Virus record (IMG/VR): IMGVR_UViG_2565956719_000013
DNA: 41,123 bases
Strand: one strand, 5' to 3'
Source of the DNA: a virus
Taxonomy: Duplodnaviria > Heunggongvirae > Uroviricota > Caudoviricetes
Below, in pieces: positions 7,015 through 26,613 of this stretch. Positions within the stretch are counted from its first letter, which is position 1; each line of letters opens with the position of its first letter. The notes below the pieces were generated by a model that saw only the letters and a program-made list of their open reading frames with translations, searched no databases and was not told where the DNA came from. The translations under genes and the position numbers were made by a program.

Positions 7015-7104
7015 ATTTACATCGCACTCCTCTTGTGCCATAGTAATCGGGCACTGGCAAAATCCAGTGCCGGGATTGGCGTCCCGGGTTACTAAGTGGC
7101 GCAT

Positions 7105-7127
7105 ACCACGCCAGACGTGGTTTTTTT
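7105..7127 (+). terminator. intrinsic terminator/attenuator in antirepressor leader
   Basis: stem ACCACG (7105-7110) / CGTGGT (7116-7121), loop CCAGA, T7 tract to 7127. Confidence 0.55.
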
Positions 7128-7283
7128 ATGCGTTAAGCACAGCTATATCCGAATTATGGTGGGCTGGGCAGGGGTCCGAAAGGACGCCGGTACCACTTAG
7201 GCCGGTACGCCAACCTTGTCCAGTTCACCACCAGTAATTGGCGTTGCGGTGGTGATTAAAATCACTAAGTGGAGATAACCACC

Positions 7284-25327: not shown

Positions 25328-25534
25328 TTACTGACCAAGCAGCGTTTTACCGCTGGTATTAGCGGTTGATGTGTCACCCTGAGAACCGGTAAGCAGCGTA
25401 GAACTACGACCAGCAGCAGCGCGACGGCGACGAGTTTCTTCGTCGCGGGCATCAACAACGGCGGCATCCTGCTCCTGTGGTGCTGCCTGAACTTCTGGTG
25501 TTGCAGGCACTGACGGTGAGCTACCCATGCACAT
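25328..25534 (-). CDS. small hypothetical protein
   Basis: ATG 25534 with GGAG RBS in a 14-nt initiation region almost identical to the portal one (CGGAGTCATTGA(A/T)ATG). Confidence 0.4.
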   Translation of the reverse strand: MCMGSSPSVPATPEVQAAPQEQDAAVVDARDEETRRRRAAAGRSSTLLTGSQGDTSTANTSGKTLLGQ

Positions 25535-25624
25535 ATCAATGACTCCGTACGCAATTAAATTATTACCAATTTAACCACATATGATTTATTTATCGTAGAT
25601 AGTTGACATTTAACGCACGAATTA

Positions 25625-25639
25625 TTACCTTTCAGGTAA
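25625..25639. promoter_or_regulatory. operator-like dyad TTACC-N5-GGTAA
   Basis: ATTACCtttcaGGTAAG, ~90 bp upstream of the portal-operon first ORF. Confidence 0.55.
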
Positions 25640-25961
25640 GCAAATGGTTCATTCCGGTTATTAACCTGACTGGCTTGTCGTTAAATTGAACAGGTGGAGT
25701 GAGCTTTTATTTTGAGCAGTACGGCGTATGGCACATGCGCCGATAGCGGTCTGGATACGTTTAAGGGGCACCCTCCCTTGCTCGGGCAAACGAACCAGGT
25801 AGCCGGAATGTGCAAGTCGAGCGGTTTTATTCCGCGCACGGGGATTCACCATCCCGGCGATTCGGTGTGACGCCTCGGAAGAGACGAGGGTACAACGATG
25901 AGAGCATTTATGGAGCCGCGACAAAGTGTGGTGCCTTAACAGGCTAAGTGCTCTCAGCGTT

Positions 25962-26038
25962 GTGGCATTAGCTCAGTCGGACAGAGCAACCGCCTTCTAA
26001 GCGGTTGGTCGCAGGTTCGAATCCTGCATGCCACGCCA
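25962..26038 (+). tRNA. tRNA-Arg (anticodon UCU)
   Basis: 77 nt; acceptor stem GTGGCAT/ATGCCAC, anticodon stem ACCGC/GCGGT with loop CTTCTAA, T-arm GCAGG-TTCGAAT-CCTGC, discriminator G, CCA encoded. Confidence 0.85.
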
Positions 26039-26081
26039 GAATCACGCCTAAGGACCGTGATGCCAGAAGTTCCAGGTGCTT

Positions 26082-26123
26082 GGCGGTGATGGTTTCCCTT
26101 GAAGGACTATCACCGCCCTTTTT
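26082..26123 (+). terminator. intrinsic terminator after tRNA
   Basis: GGCGGTGAT (26082-26090) / ATCACCGCC (26109-26117) stem, T5 at 26119-26123. Confidence 0.7.
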
Positions 26124-26241
26124 ACAGCAGGACGCCATTGCGATGACTTCATGCTGTAAACCAGTACAGCCACGGAAGGCATAACTCATTGCTTCCAGTT
26201 CGCCCGGTTCGCAGGGCATTTTTTTAAGGTGAGATTAGACT

Positions 26242-26613
26242 ATGAGTGAAAAAGACATTGAATCTGAAATTCAGGCTAAAGGTTTAGCCGCGCCGCGCGT
26301 TACGCCAGACCATATCGAGAGCATTATTGCTCAGGAGGCATATTTCACAGCAGAAGATGGTGCCTTTGGCGTAGCCATAAAAGCGAAACATACTGGCGGA
26401 GAGGTAAACTACCAGCCGCACGAATCACTTTCTCTGCTGACGTTCTGCGTCCTGGTGCTGCGCAACGGCTTCACCGTCACCGGAGAGAGCGCCTGTGCAA
26501 GCCCGGAAAACTTTGATGCAGAAATTGGTCGGAAGATTGCCCGACAGAATGCTGTAAACAAAATCTGGATGCTTGAAGGTTACTTGCTGAAGCAGAAGTT
26601 AAGCGAGCAATAA
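26242..26613 (+). CDS. Gp49-like small phage protein (N4 Gp49 / Sf6 gp66 family, from memory)
   Basis: AAGGTGAG RBS; 123 aa; C-terminal pattern FDAEIGRKIARQNAVNKIWMLEGYLL recalled for this family. Confidence 0.45.
   Translation: MSEKDIESEIQAKGLAAPRVTPDHIESIIAQEAYFTAEDGAFGVAIKAKHTGGEVNYQPHESLSLLTFCVLVLRNGFTVTGESACASPENFDAEIGRKIARQNAVNKIWMLEGYLLKQKLSEQ

Follow-up and report, generated by a model that had tools for sequence, protein, structure and literature searches.

The stretch of DNA analysed here, called the window, is the whole 41,123-nucleotide IMG/VR virus record IMGVR_UViG_2565956719_000013, an epsilon15/phiV10-like (Uetakevirus) Escherichia coli prophage. Positions 25720-25962 of its + strand, directly upstream of a tRNA-Arg gene, are one copy of a conserved pseudoknotted RNA structure that consists of a core of ~170 nucleotides (nt) and a closing stem, P6. 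It is very likely that the element is a genuine structured RNA of the + strand. The results also reveal that it moves as a discrete cassette between unrelated temperate enterobacterial phages. What the RNA does is a more tentative matter. The favoured reading, with a probability of roughly 0.45, is that it is an early-expressed, horizontally mobile accessory RNA that acts free, the RNA itself being the product.

A preliminary description of the window had marked 25640-25961 as a GC-rich, non-coding stretch with several local hairpins, which could be a tRNA leader, a structured non-coding RNA or a gene remnant. The interval is composed of two parts, a decayed leader hairpin at 25640-25719 and the structured RNA at 25720-25962. 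The second of the proposed options is borne out by covariation and by conservation in unrelated phages. The description as GC-rich is correct only relative to the neighbouring AT-rich promoter region (GC 0.385 at 25500-25699, compared to 0.555-0.565 at 25700-25999) and does not hold relative to the flanking genes (GC 0.50-0.57).

A conserved pseudoknotted RNA structure

Relatives were gathered by BLAST of the stretch and by scanning IMG/VR with an invariant 19-mer of the core. Thirty-seven sequences, at most ~93% identical pairwise, were aligned with MAFFT without fitting to any structure. In this alignment, standard base pairs occupy 97.2% of the cells, and 12 of the 25 pairs have changed on both sides. 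None of 500 column shuffles matched the observed percentage paired, the number of double-change pairs or the covariation score, and sliding the structure by 1-3 columns left no more than 6 double-change pairs and no more than 55% paired. Covariation covers P1, P2, P4, P5 and the pseudoknot, within which a C:G pair has switched to A:U in lambdoid copies. The check for covariation in relatives that the preliminary description had asked for thus finds a structure that is both conserved and covarying. The two hairpins it had named are real: GGGAU/AUCCC is P4 and CCUCG/CGAGG is P5, and each covaries across the 37 diverse homologues. About 50 positions of the alignment are invariant, most of them unpaired.

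The conserved G-U pairs (U35-G93, which is invariant, U12-G22, G9-U25 and G138-U152) are compatible with the + strand only, which fixes the strand of the RNA. The single-sequence fold of 25720-25962 has an energy of -94.6 kcal/mol (z = -2.19), versus -83.8 kcal/mol for the - strand. A covariance model of the core, R1, scores 149.5 bits on the window copy, its single match in the window. A long-range GCACAU/AUGUGC pairing proposed by RNAalifold was rejected because it clashes with the covarying local P1 stem. The P1 loop (GCAC) may still form a 4-bp tertiary contact with the junction (GUGC); as both sides are invariant, it shows no covariation.

The closing stem is variable in sequence and constant in pairing. 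Among relatives the stem occurs in 31 different sequences, every one of which pairs and encloses an insert of 44-350 nt, with compensatory combinations such as GAGAGUAUU/AAGUACUCUC, GGAAAAGGCG/CGCCGUUUCC and CAAUCAAAGAGCG/CGCUCUUUUUGAUUG. The minimum-free-energy fold also recovers P6. The final G of P6 is G1 of the tRNA-Arg. In place of the tRNA, tRNA-less relatives often have a stem-closed domain starting with the same GUGG, and the GUU/GUGG junction (U at -1, G at +1) is conserved with either neighbour.

Canonical T-arm hairpins (e.g. GUCCGUUCGAUUCGGAC and GCUGGUUCGACUCCAGC) adjoin the 3' strand of the closing stem in some variable inserts, giving the appearance of tRNA-like fragments. They are seen in the P6 inserts of loci L005 and L010 and in the downstream domains of L106, L147, L139 and L149. 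Strict T-arm matches occur at 56 loci on the + strand versus 0 on the other strand, and 47 of the 56 come from real tRNAs.

The stretch is non-coding, as had been supposed; the reading frame is not conserved and codon periodicity is absent. Its longest open reading frame (ORF), of 87 amino acids (aa), lies on the - strand at 25661..25924 and has only its first ~24 aa in common with a 74-aa ORF at the same site in phage cdtI. Past this point the frames diverge, and the remainder of the cdtI ORF corresponds to another frame of the window. Variable alignment columns show no 3-base periodicity (27/47, 31/49 and 28/45), and the length differences between copies of the element are not multiples of 3. 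A protein-coding gene or pseudogene is contradicted by the frame switch between the window and cdtI together with the absent periodicity. The proposal of a gene remnant therefore fails for the main element. The word remnant fits only the first ~80 nt, and there as the remnant of an RNA hairpin module rather than of a protein gene.

That the conserved sequence is not an RNA at all, but a degraded protein gene or a DNA-level site for recombination or protein binding, is barely credible and already largely refuted. Hypothetical proteins are annotated over the element in some phage records (mEp460_037, Tyrion gp54, phiV10), and the cassette has sharp mosaic boundaries, both of which would speak for it. 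Neither a conserved frame nor codon periodicity accompanies these annotations, however, and the changes between copies preserve helices. G-U pairs fit the + strand only, and that strand folds ~11 kcal/mol better than its complement. The hypothetical proteins annotated across the RNA on either strand, including also mEp390 gp36, are very probably spurious gene calls.

The transcription unit and its neighbourhood

The core lies within a larger unit, whose parts are listed in Table 1. A candidate promoter and an operator upstream, and a tRNA, a hairpin and a terminator downstream, indicate that the window holds a ~490-nt unit of leader, structured RNA, tRNA-Arg, hairpin and terminator. The unit thus outruns the interval of the preliminary description, continuing through the tRNA to about 26123. 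The interval is flanked by a gp3-like small ORF and the portal gene (- strand, ending at 25534) on one side and by the rightward tRNA-Arg on the other. Phage phiV10 is 98.9% identical over 701 bp around it.

Table 1. Parts of the RNA element and neighbouring features in the window
Feature	Position	Strand	Basis
Candidate early promoter: -35 TTGACA (25603-25608), 17-nt spacer, weak -10 TACCTT	25603..25639	+	Read from sequence
Palindromic operator TTACCTTTCAGGTAA, overlapping the -10	25625-25639		
Leader: long modular hairpin, decayed (ACAAC..AAAGCGCGC..GUCGUUAAAU..GCGCGCUUUCAGGUGUG)	25640..25719	+	Alignment to relatives
Conserved core of the structured RNA	25720..25890	+	Alignment of 37 sequences, covariation counts, covariance model R1
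P1 hairpin	25722-25742	+	
P2, long-range stem enclosing a variable sub-domain	25750-25754 with 25795-25799	+	
Invariant 19-mer GGUAGCCGGAAUGUGCAAG	25798-25816	+	
P3, variable hairpin	about 25821-25835	+	
P4 hairpin	25841-25855	+	
Pseudoknot: P4 loop CACC with GGUG	25847-25850 with 25864-25867	+	
P5 hairpin	25873-25889	+	
P6 domain: CAACGAUGAGAGCAUUU (25893-25909) paired with AAGUGCUCUCAGCGUUG (25946-25962) around a variable insert	25893..25962	+	Compensatory variants
tRNA-Arg, anticodon UCU, CCA encoded	25962..26038	+	ARAGORN; Rfam tRNA 73.3 bits
Conserved small hairpin AUCACG-CCUAAGGAC-CGUGAU, 3' end of the cassette	26041..26061	+	Read from sequence
Intrinsic terminator: 14-bp stem GGCGGUGAUGG..CUAUCACCGCC, then U run	26082..26123	+	Terminator scan
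Cargo gene, Gp49 family protein, 123 aa (context, outside the RNA)	26242..26613	+	Pfam PF13876, E = 2e-35

The candidate promoter (TTGACA-N17-TACCTT) and its palindrome (ATTACC-N5/6-GGTAAT) are conserved in epsilon15, SPN1S, Tyrion and ST512-KPC3phi13.3. The homologous palindrome is annotated as a repressor binding site, with an adjoining IHF site, in the GenBank record of epsilon15. The leader that follows folds no better than shuffles in the window (z = -0.9); its hairpin module is intact in Tyrion, PAT1, epsilon15 and the Klebsiella phage ST512-KPC3phi13.3, and absent from SPN1S. The epsilon15 annotators label this module an RNase III site.

The same module may be seen as a second unannotated RNA-like element that stands in tandem at these loci. 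Pairing of ACAAC.. with ..GUUGUG(G) closes a long hairpin, which has an arm such as AAAGCGCGC, an internal conserved GUCGUUAAAU and no match in Rfam. Besides the window (25640-25719), the module occurs in L007 (Enterobacter phage Tyrion) at about 1450-1540, in L008 and in L003 at 1710-1809, and it is repeated in L021, L016, L044 and others.

Downstream, the AUCACG/CGUGAU hairpin also stands 3' of the tRNA or second-domain slot in many relatives, and an equivalent GGCGG..CCGCC element with a U run follows the unit in lambdoid and other relatives. Klebsiella and Salmonella relatives retain a post-terminator hairpin (ACAGCA..UGCUGU, 26124-26157 in the window). Directly before the ribosome-binding site of gp49 comes another, weak terminator-like hairpin, GCCC-GGUUCGCA-GGGC followed by a T run (26202-26225). 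With terminators ahead of it, gp49 has to rely on read-through or on an undetected promoter.

A hypervariable gene slot separates the RNA-tRNA unit from the convergent large-terminase gene, as judged from the window and loci L100, L089, L121, L017, L036, L041, L148, L087 and L074. In L100 and L089 it carries Tad2-like anti-Thoeris candidates (PF11195, E = 3e-24 and 6e-26); Tad2 is DUF2829 (bioRxiv 10.1101/2023.05.01.538930). Elsewhere the slot contains alleles of the Gp49 family, a ~140-aa family, proteins of 200-290 aa or a 146-aa protein, or is empty. Judged by eye, the 200-290-aa proteins begin with a hydrophobic stretch and end in a coiled coil, and their Pfam matches are sub-threshold only.

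A cassette shared by unrelated phages

BLAST revealed that the main part of the element is common to unrelated phages and that its flanks are not. Lambdoid phages (cdtI, mEp460, 2H10, Ayreon, Stx2c-converting and some Stx2a-converting phages) match the window over 25721-25961/5 at ~83% identity. P1, P7, D6, SJ46 and RCS47, together with 590 plasmid records, match over 25721-25883 at ~80% identity; the sampled plasmid rows are mostly non-mobilizable and ~90-100 kb in size, i.e. P1-like. Epsilon15-like phages of Klebsiella, Salmonella and Enterobacter match at ~70-73% identity. The 19-mer scan of IMG/VR added at least 120 further loci; such exact-pattern scans saturate with near-identical enterobacterial copies. 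All loci are in phages, prophages or phage-plasmids.

The core is present in 1836 of 5426 complete E. coli genomes (~34%), at 2467 places. Among 40 sampled annotation rows over the core, 39 contain nothing and one a hypothetical protein. The exact 19-mer was found in 24 species genomes, 22 from Enterobacterales and two metagenome-assembled genomes labelled Bacillota/Oscillospiraceae. One of these two scores fully with R1, probably as the result of a binning error. Presence is patchy even among close relatives. Epsilon15 itself retains only a core remnant of ~80 nt (R1 42.7 bits), together with the terminator and downstream gene, and the core is absent from SfV and ST64B despite the same early-left genes as in carriers.

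In three unrelated groups, lambdoid, P1 and epsilon15-like, the core is located behind repressor-controlled early promoters. In lambdoids PL, with the near-consensus sequence TTGACA-16-CATAAT, lies directly 3' of the cI terminator and overlaps with operator palindromes; the element starts ~45 nt downstream of it. The P1 copy is between tRNA-Ile and ban, within the C1-controlled ban operon. A same-strand tRNA abuts the element in 49 of 136 loci and is lacking in the other 87; in 28 of the 49 the neighbour is a tRNA-Arg(UCU) lying 3' of the element, and in 21 a tRNA-Ile2(CAU) lying 5' of it. The proposed tRNA leader is therefore correct as to the position directly 5' of the tRNA, with which the element is probably co-transcribed, but does not account for the many copies without an adjacent tRNA. 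Given its conservation at tRNA-less loci and its place 3' of a tRNA in P1, the element is more than a leader. Downstream genes are mixed and include ban, DUF2303/yfdQ-like genes, xis-int, ParB-like genes and small ORFs. The epsilon15-like loci L074 and L110 have no + strand gene between the unit and the convergent terminase gene.

Other RNAs were encountered at these loci. Matches to isrK (67.7 bits) and to C4 antisense RNA (66 bits) lie side by side at 7051-7235 (+) of the window and constitute a P1-type immI-like module (c4/ant) in an epsilon15-like prophage. The same pair stands 5' of an antirepressor gene in the lambdoid carriers cdtI, mEp460 and Stx2a_1447, and P1 has c4; the structured RNA and the C4 module thus co-occur in all three phage groups. 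In Tyrion, an int-alpA RNA (Rfam RF02996, 44 bits) is found at 2708-2772, downstream of the element region, between gp53 and a DUF551 gene.

The leader of ST64B, which lacks the core, is informative about lambdoid leaders. In ST64B, 815 bp (L186, 27240-28000, - strand) separate cI from the first early-left gene and are wholly non-coding. After PL and the operators this gap contains a different 5' block of ~330 nt, including GUAGCCAGUGCAAGC, reminiscent of the invariant block. This is followed, as in the leaders of cdtI and mEp460, by a P6-type hairpin, a GUGGUG..CACCAC domain, a terminator and a post-terminator hairpin. The comparison suggests that lambdoid PL leaders are modular non-coding RNAs with interchangeable 5' cores.

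Some loci contain a small hairpin followed by TGCTCTTTAACAA, an exact rrn-type boxA (the NusB/S10 site), at about +129 from the core anchor in L095, at about -743 in L150, and also in L039 and L052. These copies suggest Nus-factor antitermination signals in the early leaders concerned. Enrichment of the strict boxA pattern comes down to a coincidence in a coding region at -507, and a genuine rrn-type boxA occurs in few variants only.

A possible function as a free-acting early RNA

The free-acting accessory RNA proposed here would, as the anatomy of the locus suggests, share a transcript with tRNA-Arg that starts at the repressor-controlled early promoter (about 25603-25639). This co-transcript would be ~490 nt long and would end at the terminator at 26082-26123. 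Cleavage by RNase P between U25961 and G25962, the 5' end of the tRNA, would leave the RNA with its 3' end buried in P6, a release that would resemble the excision of the P1 C4 and P4 CI RNAs from longer transcripts. The released, folded RNA may then bind a factor that is conserved across Enterobacterales hosts. Its accessory early role would be in host take-over or counter-defence, rather than in the control of a particular downstream gene.

Several features of the element agree with this proposal. The conserved GUU/GUGG junction points to RNase P as the enzyme that would free the RNA, cutting at the tRNA or the stem-closed domain. So many unpaired nucleotides without any variation imply that a factor shared by Enterobacterales hosts recognises the RNA. 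The unit has its own terminator, no + strand gene follows it in L074 and L110 and downstream genes are mixed elsewhere, all of which indicates that the RNA itself is the product. Its accessory nature is suggested by the epsilon15 remnant and by SfV and ST64B, which are without the core. Counter-defence is the favoured sub-reading, although taken by itself it is unlikely; it draws on early timing, patchy distribution and neighbourhood only. With its hypervariable cargo slot and flanking tRNAs the locus resembles an accessory or anti-defence island, which is circumstantial evidence. A bolder form of the proposal, and a doubtful one, is that the element represents a new class of pseudoknotted phage RNA that is made immediately on infection or induction and acts alone on a core host machine, disarming an immune system or reprogramming RNA polymerase without a phage protein.

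A number of observations weigh against a free-acting RNA. The candidate promoter was not called by a consensus promoter scan. The case for counter-defence is one of guilt by association, and the cargo gene of the window belongs to the Gp49 family and is not Tad2. No conserved neighbouring gene points to a partner protein. The P1 copy lacks P6 and runs straight into the 5' untranslated region of ban, like a cis leader. The tRNA-less second-slot domains were regarded as tRNA-like by eye only, and relaxed ARAGORN called about equal numbers of loci on both strands. Finally, the arrangement in lambdoids, in which the first RNA from PL is followed by a terminator, is classical for an antiterminator.

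The main rival explanation takes up this last point. In a cis-acting, put-like processive antiterminator, the nascent core would bind the transcribing RNA polymerase and carry it through terminators to the early-left genes, ban or gp49. The lambdoid copies are well placed for this, ~45 nt 3' of PL and with an intrinsic terminator before the first early-left ORF, and the ORFs that come first in the early-left operons of carriers gave no N-like Pfam match. Lack of N has been reported for related phages whose left operons are of the yfdP/Q/R type (PMC3851460), and the use of put-like RNA by such phages has been speculated (PMC12315714), both of which count in favour of the antiterminator. Consistent with read-through, gp49 of the window lies behind the terminator at 26082-26123 with no promoter detected by scan, in 59 of 80 contexts the first long ORF downstream has the same orientation, and an exact rrn-type boxA comes right after the core in some variants. 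However, the element has no homology to put, and each phage record (cdtI, mEp460 and others) contains a single copy, with none on the PR side. The N-less lambdoids SfV and ST64B do without the core, and ST64B retains the downstream hairpin modules and the terminator. Most of the core is gone from epsilon15, which still has its terminator and downstream gene. In L074 and L110 nothing is co-oriented, and read-through would go antisense into the terminase gene. Antitermination is thus attractive for lambdoids, but the single copy, SfV and ST64B, epsilon15, and L074 and L110 speak against it as the general function, and overall it is unlikely; an RNA that is itself the product fits every context.

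Less likely still is a scaffold for processing or stability only, which would guide or protect the maturation of tRNA or mRNA (through RNase P, RNase E or RNase III cuts, or as a 5' stabiliser) and be idle once released. The element abuts tRNA-Arg or tRNA-Ile2 on the sides given above, P6 has its last base in common with the tRNA, an RNase III site is predicted by the epsilon15 annotators in the neighbouring module and the P1 copy is the 5' end of the ban message. Yet 87 of the 136 loci are without an adjacent tRNA, tRNAs of phage and host need no such element for normal maturation, and ~50 invariant unpaired nucleotides plus a pseudoknot far exceed the needs of a cleavage signal. A sensor of the riboswitch kind, or an RNA that cleaves itself or catalyses another reaction, would explain the architecture, which is common in aptamers and ribozymes, with its conserved junctions, variable peripheral hairpins, supported pseudoknot and possible second tertiary pairing (GCAC/GUGC). 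It is nevertheless highly improbable, as downstream genes are functionally unrelated or absent with no consistent expression platform seen, no Rfam riboswitch or ribozyme matches even at E <= 10, and no conserved cleavage-site signature was identified.

The structured RNA is of interest beyond this prophage. It is unannotated although P1, the lambdoids and E. coli are among the most-studied systems, being located between trnI and ban in P1 and after cI/PL in lambda-like and Stx-converting phages. Given its strict confinement to repressor-controlled early transcripts, its mobility and the company of tRNAs and Tad2-like genes, it is a candidate, open to testing, for an early role played by RNA alone, either in phage-host conflict or in the control of transcription. 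A related question is how N-less lambdoids pass the terminators in their early-left leaders, which the comparison with ST64B suggests are modular. A covariance model for the family would improve the annotation of thousands of genomes and remove spurious hypothetical proteins.

Comparison with known RNA families

The RNA family is undescribed, at least in Rfam 15, in the sampled RefSeq/GenBank annotation rows and in the searchable literature. The Rfam scan of 25640-25961 that had been suggested returned no family, either at gathering thresholds or, with permissive filters, at E <= 10. Scans of 16 relatives likewise gave no Rfam match over the element; tRNA, isrK, C4 and int-alpA were the only families found elsewhere. 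Literature searches on the invariant sequence blocks and on a non-coding RNA at P1 ban/tRNA found no description, although an earlier one may still exist.

The position after PL in lambdoids led to a comparison with the put RNAs of HK022, two-stem RNAs of N-less lambdoid phages that suppress termination in cis by way of RNA polymerase (beta' zinc-binding domain). R1 found no match in HK022 or HK639 with default filters, and with filters off, in the PL/PR region of HK022 only, putL was not among 17 weak matches. A putative homology to put through a CGGCG..CAUGCGUCG stem was rejected, since in local alignment its score was reached by 21-430 of 500 shuffles and is not significant. A pattern built on this stem matches only putL in HK022 and HK639, but was designed after the match had been seen. 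With a post hoc pattern, a non-significant shuffle test and a model that misses put, the stem was dropped as evidence of homology.

Resemblances to the put RNAs of HK022 and HK639 are nonetheless evident. In lambdoids the element is the first structured RNA from PL, upstream of terminators, in phages without a recognisable N. Both have a compact fold with a pseudoknot-type tertiary interaction, and both have a short CGGCG/CG(U/C)CG stem preceded by CAUG. In contrast, there is no significant similarity of sequence or model, and the element is ~245 nt long compared to ~70 nt for put. HK022 and HK639 carry a putL/putR pair, whereas the element is present in a single copy per phage and is dispensable in close relatives. 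A put-like position is found in the lambdoid relatives; the unit in the window is followed by one small gene, and in L074 and L110 by none. The element is found as well in P1-like and epsilon15-like phages that have little or nothing to antiterminate.

GOLLD and ROOL are large, prophage-borne non-coding RNAs, often adjoining tRNAs, that occur mainly in Firmicutes and other groups. Like them, the element is prophage-encoded, structurally complex, often tRNA-adjacent and built with modular variable domains, and it has no associated protein gene. It has no Rfam match to either family, however, and is smaller, with a core of 170 nt and a unit of ~490 nt versus more than 500 nt. It is also restricted to phages of Enterobacterales.

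The C4 RNA of P1 and P7 and the CI RNA of P4 are phage regulatory RNAs that RNase P cuts from longer transcripts. They share with the element the character of a stable, phage-encoded RNA inside a polycistronic early or immunity transcript, and the proposed release by a tRNA-processing enzyme is likewise common to them. C4 and CI are antisense RNAs of ~80 nt with known targets, whereas the element has a pseudoknotted core, an unrelated sequence and no detectable antisense target. DicF-type small RNAs are likewise encoded in a repressor-controlled prophage early operon and processed out of it, and the ban operon of P1 carries both a dicF-like region and the structured RNA element. DicF is short, Hfq-dependent and acts by base pairing; the covarying helices and invariant junctions of the element, in contrast, are those of a folded RNA that is recognised by its shape.

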